In this document: piece after piece, positions 19,459 through 37,168 of the stretch
How the letters are laid out: every line of letters starts with the position of its first letter
How positions within the stretch are numbered: position 1 is the first letter of the stretch
Assembly (NCBI RefSeq): GCF_058153355.1
Contig: NZ_CM177019.1
DNA length: 64,000 nt
Reading direction: 5' to 3' (one strand)
Notes under the pieces: model-generated
Seen by the model: the letters and a program-made list of their open reading frames with translations, nothing else
The model's database searches: none
Told to the model about the DNA's origin: nothing
Translations under genes and position numbers: made by a program

Positions 19459-19494
19459 TTTACAGCGGCGTGTCATTTGATATGATGCGCCCCG
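19459..19494 (+). promoter_or_regulatory. tyrT promoter (-35 TTTACA, 16-bp spacer, -10 TATGAT, GC-rich discriminator GCGCCCCGC)
   Basis: consensus-like sigma70 hexamers about 45 bp upstream of the mature tRNA 5' end; GC-rich discriminator characteristic of stringently controlled stable-RNA promoters. Confidence 0.7.
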
Positions 19495-19536
19495 CTTCCC
19501 CACAAGGGAGCAGGCCAGTAAAAAGCATTACCCCGT

Positions 19537-19621
19537 GGTGGGGTTCCCGAGCGGCCAAAGGGAGCAGACTGTAAATCTTCCGTCATCGACTTCGAAGGTT
19601 CGAATCCTTCCCCCACCACCA
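19537..19621 (+). tRNA. tyrT: tRNA-Tyr (anticodon GUA), variant copy with G-to-T change in the 3' strand of the anticodon stem at 19579
   Basis: 85-nt sequence ending CCA; identical to the second copy except one base (UCUUC instead of UCUGC). Confidence 0.85.
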
Positions 19622-19655
19622 TCTCAAGCATTACATCAAAATTTGAATTATCCCT

Positions 19656-19740
<85 letters not shown>

Positions 19741-19985
19741 TCACTTTCAAAAACCCCTGTATTCTCCAACGAATCCGTAACTGAATATTCTGCCCATACG
19801 GGGAAGGATGAGAAGCTTCGACTAAGGTTCGACTCGAGCGCCAGCGAGAGAGCGTTGCCGCAGGCAACGACCCGTAGGGCGAAGCGCGCAGCGCTGAGTA
19901 ATCCTTCCCCCACCACCATCACTTTCAAAAACCCCTGTATTCTCCAACGAATCCGTAACTGAATATTCTGCCCATACGGGGAAGG

Positions 19986-20075
19986 ATGAGAAGCTTCGAC
20001 CAAGGTTCGACTCGAGCGCCAGCGAGAGAGCGTTGCCGCAGGCAACGACCCGTAGGGCGAAGCGCGCAGCGCTGA
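19986..20075 (+). CDS. tpr: protamine-like Arg-rich 29-aa peptide (tpr-type ORF, repeat unit 2)
   Basis: [38 protein letters not shown] inside the repeat unit. Confidence 0.45.
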
Positions 20076-20163
20076 GTAATCCTTCCCCCACCACCATCAC
20101 TTTCAAAAGTTCCTGAAATCCCCAACAAATCCGCAATTAAATATTCTGCCCATACGGGGAAGG

Positions 20164-20253
20164 ATGAGAAACTTCGACCAAGGTTCGACTCGAGCGCCAG
20201 CGAGAGAGCGTTGCCGCAGGCAACGACCCGTAGGGCGAAGCGCGCAGCGCTGA
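20164..20253 (+). CDS. tpr: protamine-like Arg-rich 29-aa peptide (tpr-type ORF, repeat unit 3)
   Basis: [32 protein letters not shown]; same frame and position within the repeat unit. Confidence 0.4.
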
Positions 20254-20341
20254 GTAATCCTTCCCCCACCACCATCACTTTCAAAAGTTCCTGAAATCCC
20301 CAACAAATCCGCAATTAAATATTCTGCCCATACGGGGAAGG

Positions 20342-20431
20342 ATGAGAAACTTCGACCAAGGTTCGACTCGAGCGCCAGCGAGAGAGCGTTGCCGCAGGCA
20401 ACGACCCGTAGGGCGAAGCGCGCAGCGCTGA
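20342..20431 (+). CDS. tpr: protamine-like Arg-rich 29-aa peptide (tpr-type ORF, repeat unit 4)
   Basis: identical to the unit 3 ORF. Confidence 0.4.
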
Positions 20432-20620
20432 GTAATCCTTCCCCCACCACCATCACACCTTTAAATACTCAAAACCTGTTACTTCAAGCTAATTTGCCCC
20501 GTGGCACCGCGTTTTCCGGACCTACAATATCCTCCCCTGTAGGTCAGATAAGCGAATCACTCCGCACCGTGCCCATAAAAAAACCCCGCCGAAGCAGGGT
20601 CTATGTGAACTAAAATTCGC

Positions 20621-21298
20621 TTAGTGGCGAGCACGCACCAACTGATATTTCCGTGTCAGATACTCCACCGGTACGCTCCAGATGTGCACCAGACGCGAGA
20701 ACGGGAACAGCAGGAATAACGTCATCCCCAGCACCAGGTGCAGACGGAAGATAAACGCCACACCATCAAGATGCTGGGACGCACCACCGTGGAAGGTCAC
20801 CACCGACTGTGCCCAGCCAACCAGTTTCATCATCTCGCTACCGTCCATATGCTGGGCGGAGAACGGAATGGTCAGTAGGCCCAGTGCGCACTGGATAACG
20901 AGTAGCGACAGGATCAGGATGTCCGCCCCAGTAGTCGTTGCTCGTACGCGTGGGCTGGTCAAACGACGCTTCAGCAACAGCACGCCGCCAATCAGGCACA
21001 GCACGCCGCTGGCACCACCAGCAAACATCGCCATTTTCTGTTTCACTTCAATTGGCAGCCACGCTTCATACATCCAGTGCGGCGTCAGCATACCGAAGAA
21101 GTGGCCGACAAAAATCCCCAGAATTCCGATATGGAACAGGTTCGACGCCAGGTTCATCCCTTTGCGATCCAGCATCTGGCTGGATGCCGCGCGCCAGGTG
21201 TACTGCCCGTAGTCATAGCGCAGCCAGCTACCAATCAGGAAGACCGCCCCGGCTATGTACGGGTAGATATCAAAGAAGAACATATTCAGGAATTGCAT
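20621..21298 (-). CDS. narI: respiratory nitrate reductase A gamma subunit (cytochrome b)
   Basis: 225-aa hydrophobic ORF; last gene of narGHJI. Confidence 0.95.
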
Positions 21299-22008
21299 TA
21301 GTGCTGTCCTCCGGTGGTGATATTCAGATATTGCGGCGCGACGGCACCGGCAAAGCGACGCTGATGAGCAGTGATTGCTGAATCACCGCAGCCTTTGTCA
21401 GCAAAGAATTTAACCTGCTCTTCTTCCCAGACGGCATCCAGCGCCTGTGGCGTATCGTCGCGCGCTTCATCAGCAATTTTTTCCGCCACTTTGTCGCTGT
21501 CGATAGCGGTATTCGCCAGTTTCAGCAGCAGATCAAACAGCACGGCATAACGGCTTTCACGTTGTTGCAGACGCGCGCTCAGCAATGCCAGAATCGGCGC
21601 AATATCTTTCAAACCCTCCACTGCTTCGCTTTGCGGAAGCTGCGCCAGATACTCCAGATACAGTGGCAAATGGTCTGGCAATTCGCGGCTGTTTAACTGC
21701 AAACCGTGCTGCTCATACTGTGCCAGCAGGTCCACCATCGCCTGACCGCGATCGCGGGATTCCCCGTGAACGTGTTCAAACAGCAACAGCGACGTTGCGC
21801 GACCACGATCGAACAGTTCGCTGTACTGCGCCTGGGCATCGAGCGGATCCATCGTCGTTAAATCGCGCAGGAAAATGCCCAGCGCATGGGCATCTTCTTT
21901 CGACAGATTTTTCGACGCAGCAATCGCCTCAAACATCTCTTGTTGATGCTGCCATAAGGCAGCATCCGGATATTCAAGGAGACGCGATACAATCACGAGT
22001 TCGATCAT
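21298..22008 (-). CDS. narJ: nitrate reductase assembly chaperone NarJ
   Basis: 236-aa [29 protein letters not shown]...; overlaps narI start by 1 bp. Confidence 0.95.
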
Positions 22009-23543
22009 GGGTGCGGCTCCGTTTTACTGGTCACGTCGATGGCATCGATACGACGGCTGTTAAACAGATTGAATTTGGTATCTGAACCGTGGCAGCCATC
22101 ACCAAAGGTAAAGCCGCAGCCATTTTTCTCCGGGAAGGCTTCCCGCGCCAGTTCACGATGACTGCTCGGCACCACAAAGCGATCTTCGTAGTTAGCAATC
22201 GCCAGATAACGGTACATCTCCTGTGCCTGCGCTTCTATCAGGCCGACCTCTTCCAGCGCACGGGTATCAGCTTTACCGTCAACGGTTTCAGCACGTTTGT
22301 AATGACGCATCGCCAACATACGTTTCAGTGCGCGCAGTACCGGTTGGGTGTCGCCTGCGGTCAGCAGATTCGCCAGATACTGTACCGGAATACGCAGGCT
22401 TTCGACGTCTGGCAGAATGCCATTGCTGCCCAGCTCACCCGCATCTGCCGCAGACTGAATCGGCGACAGAGGTGGCACGTACCAGACCATCGGCAGTGTG
22501 CGATATTCCGGATGCAGCGGCAGCGCCAGTTTCCATTCCATTGCCATTTTATAAACCGGCGACTGCTGTGCGGCTTCAATAACGCTCAGCGGAATACCGT
22601 CTTTAATCGCCTGCTCGATGACTTTCGGATCGTTCGGATCGAGGAACACGTCCAGCTGACGCTGGTAGAGATCTTTCTCGTTCTCGGTGCTGGCTGCACG
22701 TTCAATCGCGTCGGCATCGTACAGCAGCACGCCAAGATAACGGATACGACCGACACAGGTTTCAGAGCACACCGTCGGCTGACCGGCTTCAATACGCGGA
22801 TAGCAGAAGATGCACTTCTCAGACTTACCGCTCTTCCAGTTGAAGTAGATTTTTTTGTACGGGCATCCGGTGATGCACATACGCCAGCCACGGCATTTGT
22901 CCTGGTCGATCAGGACGATGCCATCTTCTTCACGCTTGTAAATCGCACCGCTCGGGCAGGTCGCCACACATGCCGGGTTCAGGCAGTGTTCGCACAGGCG
23001 TGGCAAATACATCATGAAGGTGTTTTCGAACTGGCTATACATCGCCTTCTGGATGTTGTCGAAGTTCTTGTCTTTCGCCAGTTTGTCAAACTCGCCGCCC
23101 AGGTCATCTTCCCAGTTTGGCCCTTTTTCGATTTTCGCCATCCGTTCGCCGGTAATCAGCGAACGTGGACGGGCAATCGGCTGCGATTTGCTGCCTTCCG
23201 GCGCGGTATGCAGGTTCTGATAGTCAAAATCGAACGGCTCGTAATAATCGTCGATCCCCGGCAGATGCGGGTTAGCGAAAATTTTACCCAGCAGCATGGC
23301 GCGGTTACCCATGCGCGGTTGCAGTTTGCCGTTGATTTTACGGATCCAGCCGCCTTTGTATTTTTCCTGGTTTTCCCAGTCTGTCGGGAAGCCCTGGCCC
23401 GGCTTGGTTTCCACGTTGTTGAACCACGCGTATTCCACGCCTTCACGGCTGGTCCAGACGTTTTTACAGGTCACTGAACAGGTGTGGCAACCGATGCACT
23501 TATCCAGATTCAGCACCATGCCGACTTGTGAACGAATTTTCAT
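22005..23543 (-). CDS. narH: respiratory nitrate reductase A beta subunit (Fe-S)
   Basis: 512-aa ORF with multiple ferredoxin-type Cys clusters (CIGCHTCSVTC, CEHCLNPACVATCP). Confidence 0.97.
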   Translation of the reverse strand: MKIRSQVGMVLNLDKCIGCHTCSVTCKNVWTSREGVEYAWFNNVETKPGQGFPTDWENQEKYKGGWIRKINGKLQPRMGNRAMLLGKIFANPHLPGIDDYYEPFDFDYQNLHTAPEGSKSQPIARPRSLITGERMAKIEKGPNWEDDLGGEFDKLAKDKNFDNIQKAMYSQFENTFMMYLPRLCEHCLNPACVATCPSGAIYKREEDGIVLIDQDKCRGWRMCITGCPYKKIYFNWKSGKSEKCIFCYPRIEAGQPTVCSETCVGRIRYLGVLLYDADAIERAASTENEKDLYQRQLDVFLDPNDPKVIEQAIKDGIPLSVIEAAQQSPVYKMAMEWKLALPLHPEYRTLPMVWYVPPLSPIQSAADAGELGSNGILPDVESLRIPVQYLANLLTAGDTQPVLRALKRMLAMRHYKRAETVDGKADTRALEEVGLIEAQAQEMYRYLAIANYEDRFVVPSSHRELAREAFPEKNGCGFTFGDGCHGSDTKFNLFNSRRIDAIDVTSKTEPHP

Positions 23544-26500
23544 TTTACGCTCTCCTGTACCTGGTCATTGCCTTCGCCATCTAACCAGTCAATGTTCTTC
23601 ATCTTACGCACTACAACAAATTCATCGCGGTTAGAACCTACAGTGCCGTAGTAGTTAAAGCCGTATGCCAGATGGGCATAGCCACCGATCATATGCGTCG
23701 GTTTCGGCGTGATACGGGTGACCGAGTTATGAATACCGCCGCGCTGACTGGTGATTTCTGAACCAGGCAGGTTAACGATACGTTCCTGCGCGTGGTACAT
23801 CATGGTCATCCCTGCCGGAACACGCTGGCTGACAACCGCACGGGCAGTCAATGCACCGTTGCTGTTGAAGACTTCAATCCAGTCGTTATCGGCGATACCC
23901 AGCTCTTTGGCATCGGCTTCACTCAACCAGACCACCGGACCACCGCGACCTAAAGTCAGCATCAGCAGGTTGTCGCTGTAGGTGGAGTGGATACCCCACT
24001 TCTGGTGCGGTGTCAGGAAGTTGAGCGCTTTTTCCGGATTACCGTTAGATTTCTGGCCCATCACTTCTTTCACCGAACGGGTGTCGATCGGCGGACGATA
24101 AACCAGCAGGCTTTCACCGAAATCACGCATCCACTGGTGATCCTGATACAGCTGCTGACGGCCAGAGAGCGTACGCCACGGGATCAGCTCGTGAACGTTG
24201 GTGTAACCGGCGTTGTAAGAAACATGTTCATCTTCAAGGCCAGACCAGGTCGGGCTGGAGATGATTTTGCGCGGCTGCGCCTGAATGTCACGGAAGCGGA
24301 TCTTCTCCTCTTCTTTATTCAGCGCCAGATGCGTATGGTCACGACCGGTAAACTCACTCAATGCCGCCCAGGCTTTCACGGCCACCTGGCCGTTGGTTTC
24401 TGGTGCCAGCGTCAGGATCATCTCTGCTGCATCAATTGCGGTGTTGAGCATCGGCTGGCCTTTTGCCGGACCTTCCGCTTTGGTGTAGTTGAGCTTACGC
24501 AGCAGATCCATCTCGCTCTGGGTGTTCCAGGCAATCCCTTTACCGCCGTTACCGATTTTCTCCATCAGCGGACCGATAGAGGTAAAGCGTTCGTAAGTTG
24601 CCGGATAATCGCGCTCAACGACCATAATGTGCGGTGCAGTTTTACCTGGGATCAGGTCGCATTCGCCTTTTTTCCAGTCTTTCACATCCAGCGGCTGCGC
24701 CAGTTCAGCGGCAGAGTCGTGCTGGATCGGCAGCGTAACGATGTCGGTTTCTTTGCCCAGATGACCAACGCACACTTCGGAGAATTTCTTCGCGATGGCT
24801 TTGTAGATTTCCCAGTCGCTTTTCGCTTCCCAGGCCGGATCGACCGCCGCAGACAGCGGGTGAATAAACGGATGCATATCCGAAGTATTCATGTCGTCTT
24901 TTTCGTACCAGGTCGCCGTCGGCAAAATGATGTCGGAATAGAGACAGGTGCTCGACAGACGGAAGTCCAGCGTCACCACCAGATCCAGCTTGCCTTCCAG
25001 ACCGTTGTCCTGCCAGTCCACTTCTTCCGGCTTCACGCCGCCCTGCTGACCCAGGTCTTTACCCTGGATACCGTGCTCCGTCCCCAGCAGGTACTTGAGC
25101 ATAAACTCATGACCTTTACCGGAAGAACCGAGCAGGTTAGAACGCCAGATGAACAGGTTACGCGGGTGGTTTTTACCGTTTTCTGGTTGTTCTGCCGCAA
25201 AACGGATAGAACCCTCTTTCAGGGATTTCACCGTATAGTCCACCGGATTCATCCCGGCTTTTTCTGCTTCGCGAGCGATAGTCAGCGGGTTAGTGCCTAA
25301 CTGCGGCGCAGACGGCAGCCAGCCCATGCGTTCCGCACGGACGTTAAAGTCGATCAGATGTCCGGTATAGCGGGATTTATCCGCCATCGGCGACAGCAAC
25401 TCTTCCGCAGTCACGGTTTCATAACGCCACTGGCTGGAGTGGTTATAGAAATAAGAGGTGCTGTTCATGTGACGAGCCGGACGCTGCCAGTCAAGGGCAA
25501 ACGCCAGCGGCTGCCAGCCGGTTTGCGGACGCAGTTTTTCCTGACCTACATAGTGCGCCCAGCCACCACCGCTCTGACCGACGCAGCCGCAGAAAATCAG
25601 CATGTTGATCAGACCGCGATAGTTCATATCAAGGTGATACCAGTGGTTCAGACCTGCACCAACGATGATCATTGAACGACCGTGGGTCTTATCAGCGTTG
25701 TCAGCAAATTCACGGGCAATGCGGATAATCTGGCTGCGAGAAACGCCAGTGATCTGCTCGGCCCATGCAGGGGTGTAGGCTTTCACGTCGTCATAGCTGG
25801 TTGCGCAGTTAACGTCGTTCAGACCACGTTCCAGACCGTAGTTTGCCAACGTCAGATCATAAACGGTCGTCACCAGTGCAGTGCTGCCATCAGCCAGTTG
25901 CAGGCGTTTCACCGGCAGCTTGTGCAGCAGCACGTTTTCCAGTTCCACTTTGTTGAAGTGTTCCGTGCCGTCGCCACCAAAGTATGGGAAGCCCACTTCA
26001 GCGATCTCATCCTGGCTACCCAGCAGGCTCAGTTGCAGCTCGGTTTCTTCGCCAGTTTTGCCGTCGCGCTGCTCAAGATTCCATTTGCCCTTCTCGCCCC
26101 AGCGGAAGCCAATAGAACCGTTCGGCGCAACCATTTCTCCATTGGTATTAAAGGCGACAGTTTTCCATTCCGGATTGTTTTCCTGGCCCAGCGCATCAAC
26201 CAGATCAGCAGCGCGCAGCATACGACCTGCGGCGTAGTAACCGTCGCGTTCTTCCAGCATCACCAGCATCGGCATGTCGGTGTAGCGACGCACATAGTCG
26301 GTGAAATACTGGCTTGGGTTGTCGAGGTGGAATTCACGCAGCATCACGTGGCCCATCGCCAGCGCCATTGCTGCGTCGGTGCCCTGCTTCGGTGCCAGCC
26401 ACAGATCGCACAGTTTGGCGATTTCAGCGTAGTCCGGCGTGACGGCAACGGTTTTGGTGCCTTTGTAGCGCACTTCAGTAAAGAAGTGAGCATCCGGGGT

Positions 26501-27283
26501 ACGCGTCTGCGGCACGTTAGAGCCCCAGGCGATGATGTAGCTGGAGTTGTACCAGTCAGCGGATTCCGGTACGTCAGTCTGCTCACCCCAGGTTTGTGGA
26601 GATGCAGGAGGCAGATCGCAGTACCAGTCGTAGAAGCTTAAGCAAGTACCGCCAAGCAGCGAGAGATAACGCGCACCCGACGCGTAAGAAACCATCGACA
26701 TTGCCGGAATTGGCGAGAAGCCAGCGACACGGTCCGGGCCGTAGTTTTTGATGGTGTAAACGTTAGATGCGGCGATCAGTTCGTTCACTTCCTGCCAGGA
26801 AGAACGAACAAAACCACCGCGTCCACGCGCCTGCTTAAAGCTTTTCGCTTTATCGGCGTCTTCAATGATAGAAGCCCATGCCTCAACCGGATCGCTATGC
26901 AGTGCCTTCGCTTCACGCCACATTTTCATCAGGCGTTTGCGCATCATCGGGTATTTCAGACGGTTGGCGCTGTAAAGATACCAGGAGTAGCTGGCACCGC
27001 GCGGGCAGCCGCGAGGTTCATGGTTTGGCAGATCCGGGCGAGTACGCGGATAGTCAGTCTGCTGGGTTTCCCAAGTGACCAGACCGTTTTTAACGTAGAT
27101 TTTCCAGCTGCAGGAGCCGGTGCAGTTTACCCCATGGGTAGAGCGGACGATTTTGTCATGCTGCCAACGCTGGCGATATCCATCCTCCCAGTCACGGTTG
27201 GTATTGAGAAGCTGGCCATGCCCATCGGCAAAGGTTTCGCCCTTCTGTTTGAAGTAGCGAAACCGGTCCAGGAATTTACTCAT
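23540..27283 (-). CDS. narG: respiratory nitrate reductase A alpha subunit (molybdopterin)
   Basis: 1247-aa ORF MSKFLDRFRYFKQKGETFADGHGQ...; N-terminal HxxxCxxxC cluster motif. Confidence 0.97.
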   Translation of the reverse strand: MSKFLDRFRYFKQKGETFADGHGQLLNTNRDWEDGYRQRWQHDKIVRSTHGVNCTGSCSWKIYVKNGLVTWETQQTDYPRTRPDLPNHEPRGCPRGASYSWYLYSANRLKYPMMRKRLMKMWREAKALHSDPVEAWASIIEDADKAKSFKQARGRGGFVRSSWQEVNELIAASNVYTIKNYGPDRVAGFSPIPAMSMVSYASGARYLSLLGGTCLSFYDWYCDLPPASPQTWGEQTDVPESADWYNSSYIIAWGSNVPQTRTPDAHFFTEVRYKGTKTVAVTPDYAEIAKLCDLWLAPKQGTDAAMALAMGHVMLREFHLDNPSQYFTDYVRRYTDMPMLVMLEERDGYYAAGRMLRAADLVDALGQENNPEWKTVAFNTNGEMVAPNGSIGFRWGEKGKWNLEQRDGKTGEETELQLSLLGSQDEIAEVGFPYFGGDGTEHFNKVELENVLLHKLPVKRLQLADGSTALVTTVYDLTLANYGLERGLNDVNCATSYDDVKAYTPAWAEQITGVSRSQIIRIAREFADNADKTHGRSMIIVGAGLNHWYHLDMNYRGLINMLIFCGCVGQSGGGWAHYVGQEKLRPQTGWQPLAFALDWQRPARHMNSTSYFYNHSSQWRYETVTAEELLSPMADKSRYTGHLIDFNVRAERMGWLPSAPQLGTNPLTIAREAEKAGMNPVDYTVKSLKEGSIRFAAEQPENGKNHPRNLFIWRSNLLGSSGKGHEFMLKYLLGTEHGIQGKDLGQQGGVKPEEVDWQDNGLEGKLDLVVTLDFRLSSTCLYSDIILPTATWYEKDDMNTSDMHPFIHPLSAAVDPAWEAKSDWEIYKAIAKKFSEVCVGHLGKETDIVTLPIQHDSAAELAQPLDVKDWKKGECDLIPGKTAPHIMVVERDYPATYERFTSIGPLMEKIGNGGKGIAWNTQSEMDLLRKLNYTKAEGPAKGQPMLNTAIDAAEMILTLAPETNGQVAVKAWAALSEFTGRDHTHLALNKEEEKIRFRDIQAQPRKIISSPTWSGLEDEHVSYNAGYTNVHELIPWRTLSGRQQLYQDHQWMRDFGESLLVYRPPIDTRSVKEVMGQKSNGNPEKALNFLTPHQKWGIHSTYSDNLLMLTLGRGGPVVWLSEADAKELGIADNDWIEVFNSNGALTARAVVSQRVPAGMTMMYHAQERIVNLPGSEITSQRGGIHNSVTRITPKPTHMIGGYAHLAYGFNYYGTVGSNRDEFVVVRKMKNIDWLDGEGNDQVQESVK

Positions 27284-36275: not shown

Positions 36276-36567
36276 CAGTTATATCTCCTCCGATGACGAA
36301 AATCGGGGGAGATAATATAAATTCCTGCTTATTGTATTTCTTCATACTACCTGAACAGGTCGTTAATCAGAATTGCGAGCCTGTACCACAACCTGCACTA
36401 AACCACTGCAACAGCTGTTGAAAAGCCGGAATGTACTCTTTATTGCAAACATTTCAGGGATGAAGTGAAGATGAATTGAGACGTAATATCCACACCAAGC
36501 CGGCGTTATCCGGTGAGGCGCAATGTTGCGGGGGCTTTATCCCTGGTGGCATTGGTTGCTGGAAAGA

Positions 36568-36633
36568 GAAAACCCCCGCACGTTGAGAGGTAAAACCTGA
36601 CAACAGAACGGGGGCTAATCTTGAACCATCAAC
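36568..36633 (-). ncRNA. rdl: Rdl-type antisense RNA (antitoxin of ldr), copy 1, approximate coordinates
   Basis: placed by the known ldr/rdl geometry (rdl lies antisense in the ldr 5' leader, about 48 bp upstream of the ldr start); region contains a GC-rich hairpin CCCCCGCACG...; no ORF. Confidence 0.45.
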
Positions 36634-37102: not shown

Positions 37103-37168
37103 AGAAAACCCCCGCACGTTGAGAGGTACAACCTGACAACAGAACGGGGGCTAATCTTGAAACCAGAC
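37103..37168 (-). ncRNA. rdl: Rdl-type antisense RNA, copy 2, approximate coordinates
   Basis: same position within LDR unit 2 as copy 1. Confidence 0.45.

Follow-up and report, generated by a model that had tools for sequence, protein, structure and literature searches.

The window, as I call the whole analysed stretch of 64,000 nucleotides, carries two tRNA-Tyr genes and a tandem array of RtT units between purU and narI, in the same order as in K-12 and other E. coli. The top promoter-like site of this region lies on the plus strand at 19459-19486 (TTTACA, a 16-nt spacer and TG-TATGAT, which includes an extended -10; it matches at 10 of 12 positions). It precedes the first tRNA-Tyr gene by 50 nt, and I take it to be the classical tyrT promoter. 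ARAGORN places two tRNA-Tyr(GTA) genes on the plus strand, at 19537-19621 (the tyrT position) and at 19656-19740 (the tyrV position), separated by a spacer of 34 nt (19622-19655). The first of them, which scores 47.6 bits with the Rfam tRNA model against 53.4 bits for the second, has a T at 19579. A G is found at this place in the second copy and in nine other E. coli strains; the T replaces G42 of the anticodon stem, resulting in a C28.U42 mismatch. The interval 19500-19660 has a 100% match in none of the complete E. coli genomes (best 99.4%), and T19579 may be either a mutation private to this strain or a mistake in base calling.

Directly after tyrV, four 178-bp units follow each other in register (19741-20452, plus strand). 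Four full units had been noted in a preliminary description of this DNA, and the observation is confirmed, as Tandem Repeats Finder (array 19722-20456, period 178, 4.1 copies, 97% matches, 0% indels), a repeat search with start-to-start spacings of 178, 178 and 178, and the in-register cut all agree. Each unit consists of a 46-nt C-rich leader followed by a full RtT RNA of 132 nt (Rfam RF00391). Unit 1 (19741-19918, with RtT RNA at 19787-19918) and unit 2 (19919-20096, RtT RNA at 19965-20096) are of type A, unit 3 (20097-20274, RtT RNA at 20143-20274) and unit 4 (20275-20452, RtT RNA at 20321-20452) of type B. The array had been described as two sequence variants in two copies each; units 3 and 4 are identical, and units 1 and 2 show a single difference at 19823 (T vs. 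C, respectively; unit 1 is written A' below). Between the two types there are 11 differences: 10 fall within the first 46 nt, and the remaining one is AGC/AAC in codon 3 of the small reading frame discussed below. Four C-rich, G-poor stretches of 79 nt each recur on the plus strand (19722-19800, 19900-19978, 20078-20156 and 20256-20334), with 36.7-38% C and 6.3-7.6% G, while the RtT cores have 37-38% G; going by composition only, these stretches look as Rho-utilisation sites would be expected to look.

A unique tail (20453-20620) leads from the last unit to the convergent narI, the open reading frame of which runs from 20621 to 21298 on the minus strand and is annotated as narI in relatives. 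The tail holds the narI terminator (20602-20581, minus strand), and no intrinsic terminator was found on the plus strand after the array. Antisense open reading frames of 190, 129 and 117 amino acids (19473-20045, 19925-20314 and 20103-20456, minus strand) cross the tRNA genes and repeats; they are repeat artefacts, of the same kind as the ychS annotation in K-12. Further downstream, the best match to the nar operon (21000-27000) among 5,426 complete E. coli genomes has 98.4% identity, so that the lineage of the window is without a representative in that set.

The locus shares with the tyrT-tyrV-rttR/tpr locus of K-12 the flanks purU and narI, the promoter, the two tRNA-Tyr genes and the 178-bp period, and the units of both differ at 7-15 of 178 positions. 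In K-12 MG1655 the order is tyrT, a divergent RtT unit of 175 nt, tyrV and three 178-bp units, with rttR (171 nt as annotated) and tpr (b1229, PRTL_ECOLI) both on the first unit after tyrV. The figure of about 3.14 units previously given for K-12 agrees with these three full units, as the same way of counting yields 3.14 there and 4.13 here. After tyrV there are thus four units here versus three in K-12, whereas the RtT unit between tyrT and tyrV, present in K-12, is absent here; including the spacer unit, both loci come to four. The tyrT-tyrV spacer measures 209 nt in K-12, in O157:H7 and in ET846, where it contains the divergent RtT unit (with a GTG start and TAA as codon 6), compared to the 34 nt seen here, and the presence or absence of this unit looks like a gain or loss via recombination between 19-nt tRNA-type ends. 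Elsewhere in the window, two rdlD-family antitoxin RNAs (36567-36632 and 37103-37168, minus strand; 83.6 and 90.1 bits) belong to two ldr/rdl toxin-antitoxin modules in tandem. As K-12 presumably has three such modules at the corresponding locus, this is another tandem copy-number difference.

A structured RNA in each unit

All four units match RF00391 over its full length (model positions 1-130 of 130), with 133.0 bits for unit 1 and 134.4 bits for each of the other three at a gathering score of 45, and no deviation from the family is seen in the window. The first RtT begins 47 nt after tyrV, on the same strand. I also rejected a mobile element or a CRISPR-like array as the nature of these repeats, on the grounds of the full-length match to the RtT family and the conserved chromosomal context.

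The RNA is closed by a 10-bp stem P1 (GGGGAAGGAU / AUCCUUCCCC), the 3' strand of which is copied from tRNA-Tyr, and which leaves a single-stranded ...ACCACCA tail as in tRNA-Tyr itself. Some 110 loci, drawn from the species representatives available for the Enterobacterales, hold 143 arrays of 1-6 units and yield 159 distinct full-length units, and the alignment comprises 149 units. The tested composite structure consists of P1, the long-range pairing P2 of Rfam and three hairpins P3, P4 and P5; in unit 2, P1 corresponds to 19978-19987/20079-20088, P3 to 20014-20017/20022-20025, P4 to 20031-20036/20042-20047 and P5 to 20061-20065/20069-20073. Over the 149 units, 89.7% of the cells of this structure are paired. 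Doubly changed cells number 167, versus 25.7 +/- 4.2 in shuffles and 5-26 in controls with slid partners, and none of 500 shuffles reached any of five covariation measures. Compensatory changes are found in five of the six pairs of P4 and in all five pairs of P5.

Hairpin P5 (AGCGC/GCGCU; alignment columns 106-110/121-125) covaries, yet it is unpaired in the RF00391 consensus. Its two middle pairs are replaced by tandem G.A/A.G in 55 units; in P3, G.A/A.G is the usual state (140 units), with Watson-Crick pairs in the other 9. The RNAalifold consensus contains a local TCGA/TCGA hairpin instead of the long-range pairing of Rfam, and as the columns concerned are nearly invariant, neither is preferable. 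The conserved part of the unit is the G-rich core with its three covarying hairpins, rather than the C-rich leader. Judged from the alignment, the conserved feature of this array is thus a structured RNA, its predicted fold backed by strong covariation.

Whether the freed RNA does anything by itself is a different matter. The units could be cis-acting modules for termination and processing only, with a functionless RtT RNA as their product, which I regard as possible though doubtful. Rfam indeed places RtT in its cis-regulatory class, and each unit offers a C-rich, G-poor stretch in a transcript with no intrinsic terminator; the number of units varies from 0 to 9 among genomes, 14% of which lack the array, as detailed below, and overexpression of RttR gave no phenotype in one screen for biofilm formation and motility (PMC4606813). 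A Rho site, on the other hand, needs less than a conserved G-rich core with three covarying hairpins, and RtT has been kept beside tRNA-Tyr across many genera: among the arrays located away from a contig edge, 119 of 126 lie 40-82 nt 3' of a tRNA-Tyr(GTA). A preprint (10.1101/2024.07.17.603846) finds the coverage of the locus raised in exonuclease-resistant DNA under stress, and gives no mechanism.

Copy number and the tRNA-type ends

The preliminary description had suggested comparing the repeat number across E. coli genomes, and this number varies widely, from 0 to 9 unit places per genome. Of the 5,426 complete E. coli genomes, 4,684 contain matches to a single-unit query, with a median of 2 and a maximum of 9 places per genome and 10,010 places in total, while the remaining 742 genomes (14%) show zero megablast match to the unit. 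In a systematic sample of 60 genomes, 1, 2, 3, 4, 5 and 7 places occur in 18, 19, 16, 4, 2 and 1 genomes, respectively. All these counts derive from the single-unit query, as BLAST with the full locus merges pieces and is therefore unsuited to counting. RefSeq records at the locus carry one to eight annotations of 'RtT sRNA, processed from tyrT transcript', with three in an O157:H7 strain, four in Z0117EC0005, EC42405 and 2020CK-00188, five in B20105 and eight in ET846. Four units are a common, ordinary allele. The ST131 strain EC958 presents a different arrangement: at the corresponding place it has a single tRNA-Tyr and no RtT unit, no tyrV, array or narI, and genes of the fatty-acid and sterol desaturase families begin 17 nt after the tRNA (L125, 1737-2929). 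This arrangement probably represents many of the 742 genomes without a match.

The three strains with four annotated RtT sRNAs have two tRNA-Tyr genes and a 34-nt spacer, as seen here, and differ in the order and mix of their units, those of Z0117EC0005 being four identical type-B units and those of EC42405 and 2020CK-00188 being mutually different. The exact combination A', A, B, B is absent from the 5,426 complete genomes (best match 98.2%). Together with the identity of units 3 and 4, the single base between units 1 and 2 and the inability of short reads to fix a copy number in such an array, this could indicate that the copy number or the order of the units is an artefact of assembly, caused by expansion or collapse of the repeat. 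I consider this unlikely. The four units keep perfect register and pass cleanly into both unique flanks, and the finished genomes of Z0117EC0005, EC42405 and 2020CK-00188 likewise have four units between these flanks. Both unit types occur in such genomes, and elsewhere among complete genomes, type B being found at 100% identity (in Z0117EC0005 among others) and type A at 98.9-99.4%. A novel combination of units is moreover to be expected in a lineage whose nar operon is no more than 98.4% identical to that of any complete genome. The count of identical type-B units does rest on the assembly.

The 3' end of each unit repeats that of the tRNA. In the species representatives, RtT and the upstream tRNA-Tyr agree over their final 18 nt in 127 of 140 units. 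The length of 18 nt previously given for this shared end therefore applies family-wide, but in the window it amounts to 19 nt (AATCCTTCCCCCACCACCA). In species with variant tRNA-Tyr ends the RtT end matches the variant in all 37 units (20/20, 13/13 and 4/4), and where the tRNA ends in CCUUCUCC, the 5' strand of RtT reads GGAGAAGG. As the RtT ends follow the tRNA-Tyr variant of their own species, the tRNA and its trailing units appear to evolve in concert.

The resemblance extends to the T arm. With a 69-nt insert between them, AAGGTTCGA and ATCCTTCCCCCACCACCA together make up the T arm and the acceptor 3' strand of tRNA-Tyr; the whole RtT can be written as AAGGUUCGA, the 69-nt insert and AUCCUUCCCCCACCACCA, the T arm being split inside the T loop. 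The degenerate T-arm-like segment of the preliminary description is thus present, and it completes a T arm with the 3' end. Taken alone, the internal piece does not stand out: when the tRNA is locally aligned with the RtT core after removal of its terminal 19 nt, the score is 17, and 116 of 1000 shuffles score as high. It takes the shared 3' end as well to make the resemblance convincing. An origin of the array by recombination on tRNA 3' ends, which had been proposed on the basis of these features, gains from the way in which RtT ends track the tRNA-Tyr variants, and the array was plausibly both built and resized in this manner. Runs of identical neighbouring units occur in this array (units 3 and 4), in Z0117EC0005 (four) and in ET846 (four), and together with the variable spacer unit they support the upkeep of the array by recombination on tRNA-type ends.

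The tpr reading frame

Units 2, 3 and 4 each contain an ATG-started open reading frame of 29 codons (19986-20075, 20164-20253 and 20342-20431, respectively; MRNFDQ... in units 3 and 4), nine of which encode arginine. These frames were found with the peptide sequences reported earlier, and 28 or 27 of their 29 residues are identical to Tpr of K-12. The corresponding frame of unit 1 begins with the ATG at 19808 and stops after five codons at the TAA of 19823-19825, also as reported. Three intact frames are thus seen here versus one in K-12, and after tyrV the TAA is located in the first unit here, in the second unit in K-12. The initial interpretation was that unit 1 carries a nonsense variant of the small reading frame.

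The family places this the other way around. The TAA state (CGACTAAGG) is that of the majority, as TAAG is found in 84 of the 149 distinct units and CAAG in 37, and the family consensus reads ...CTTCGACTAAGGTTCGA...; to call unit 1 the nonsense variant is to read the change backwards. Within E. coli, CGACTAAGG is also present in unit 2 and in the spacer unit of K-12, and in unit 1 of O157. The first units of EC42405 and 2020CK-00188 carry the same TAA and differ from unit 1 of the window by 1-2 nt, so that the type-A unit probably had T at 19823 to begin with and changed to C in unit 2.

Nor does the frame behave as a coding sequence elsewhere in the alignment. An ATG is present at the tpr start in 134 units, and 72 of these stop after five codons; 37 run for at least 25 codons, in different frames, and the residues after codon 11 come from three different frames in different genera. 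Column entropies at the three codon positions are 0.479, 0.434 and 0.430 (p = 0.60), no third-position excess being found over the span of the frame in the 149-unit alignment, and length differences that are not a multiple of three break the frame in 90 of the 149 units. Within E. coli alone the frame is stopped at codon 6 (TAA), codon 10 (TGA) or codon 25 (TAG). It is intact in 16 of the 29 E. coli units inspected, and O157:H7 strain N8B7-2 has zero intact copies. In short, the frame, the entropy and the stops across some 150 units give no sign of selection on the 29 codons as a coding sequence.

The annotation of the peptide is uneven. 'Protamine-like protein' is the name given in K-12, in UniRef and in the records of some submitters, and the exact peptide of the window is recorded for two public contigs; public records have the window's peptides under this submitter-given name only. 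The current NCBI pipeline annotates RtT sRNA at this locus in E. coli genomes, and no coding sequence. No Pfam or NCBIfam matches to the tpr peptides were found, and a literature search for evidence of Tpr translation returned matches to 'true positive rate' and to tetratricopeptide repeats only. A paper from 1981 reportedly described a small basic protein from this region.

In the RNA structure, the C/U site of codon 6 lies opposite a near-invariant G, with which it forms a U.G pair (87 units) or a C-G pair (50 units), so that the T/C change should be neutral for the RNA; the fold predicted for unit 1 is also that of unit 2, with minimum free energies of -49.6 and -49.7 kcal/mol, respectively. 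The only purine-rich stretch, GGGGAAGG, abuts the AUG without a spacer, and both are inside P1, which is predicted as well as covarying, even though a nascent transcript could still be open at the AUG. On this reading, T19823 is a structure-neutral C/U polymorphism and not a gene-killing mutation.

A real gene for a 29-residue arginine-rich peptide, with three working copies and one inactivated by the nonsense codon, is accordingly a very improbable reading of this locus, as the near-identity of the frames to K-12 Tpr, their annotation as b1229 and as protamine-like, the full frames in just over half of the inspected E. coli units and the 1981 report of a small basic protein are outweighed by a stop codon that is the commonest state of the family, independent stops within E. 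coli, a strain without an intact copy and 742 genomes without a unit match, the missing third-position signal, the frequent frame-breaking length changes and the change of frame between genera, a start codon buried in a conserved stem with its only purine-rich stretch and no spacer, and a current annotation as sRNA. The 29-codon frame rather looks like a fortuitous one in the RtT RNA, a by-product of a structured RNA, as far as comparative sequence data can tell.

Proposed working of the locus

In K-12, transcription proceeds from the tyrT promoter through both tRNAs and ends in a Rho-dependent manner in the second unit, and a 171-nt rtT RNA is released by processing. The response to amino-acid starvation reportedly changed when this RNA was overexpressed, and a role there has been proposed; RtT is not known to have a function in trans.

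With high confidence, I regard the locus in the window as the distal part of a tyrT operon with four RtT modules in an A', A, B, B allele, in which the tpr frame is fortuitous. A strong promoter would drive two tRNA-Tyr genes and, behind them, the tandem array, which is probably co-transcribed with the tRNAs if K-12 is a guide. The RtT RNAs would then be freed by the same 3'-end maturation that produces the CCA end of the tRNA. Rather than stop at an intrinsic terminator, transcription may fade as Rho terminates it at one C-rich leader after another, and distal units would be expressed at a lower level than proximal units. The gain, loss and homogenisation of units would be due to slippage or unequal homologous recombination, either between 178-bp units or between the 18-19-nt tRNA-type ends, and the array A', A, B, B may be the product of recent duplications.

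The 3'ETS of the glyW-cysT-leuZ transcript is a known sRNA sponge that derives from a tRNA operon. By analogy, it and RtT would be alike in being stable RNAs freed from a tRNA precursor by the processing machinery. RtT differs from it in its tandem repeats, in its copy of the tRNA 3' end and in having no demonstrated partner.

An improbable but more far-reaching idea is that RtT, with its continuous GGGGAAGG/CCUUCCCC helix and its ...ACCACCA tail, mimics the acceptor/T-arm half of tRNA-Tyr and is kept identical to the local tRNA-Tyr in each of the species covered, and that the copy number of the units, which in E. coli goes from none to at least eight per genome, acts as a fast-changing dosage knob. 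If true, RtT would titrate a factor that is specific for tRNA-Tyr or that binds CCA ends, and processing nucleases, a starvation sensor or a tRNA-targeting toxin would be candidates for it. As a lesser variant, the CAA/TAA state of a unit might set how far the ribosome reaches behind the polymerase, and hence the site at which Rho stops transcription.

The repeats of the distal tyrT operon, their RtT RNA and the tpr frame have all been known for decades, and public genomes already include annotated arrays of four units. As a discovery the locus therefore carries little weight, and the useful outcome is a curatorial one. Of the two interpretations given in the preliminary description, the one centred on the peptide is not supported, while the one that derives the array from recombination is. 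A TAA in the tpr frame should not lead to a pseudogene call, as this frame, still listed as a gene in K-12, behaves in some 150 distinct units like one that arose by chance. Curators of RNA families may find two by-products of interest, namely hairpin P5, which covaries but has no place in the Rfam consensus, and the strict match of the RtT 3' ends to the tRNA-Tyr of each species.
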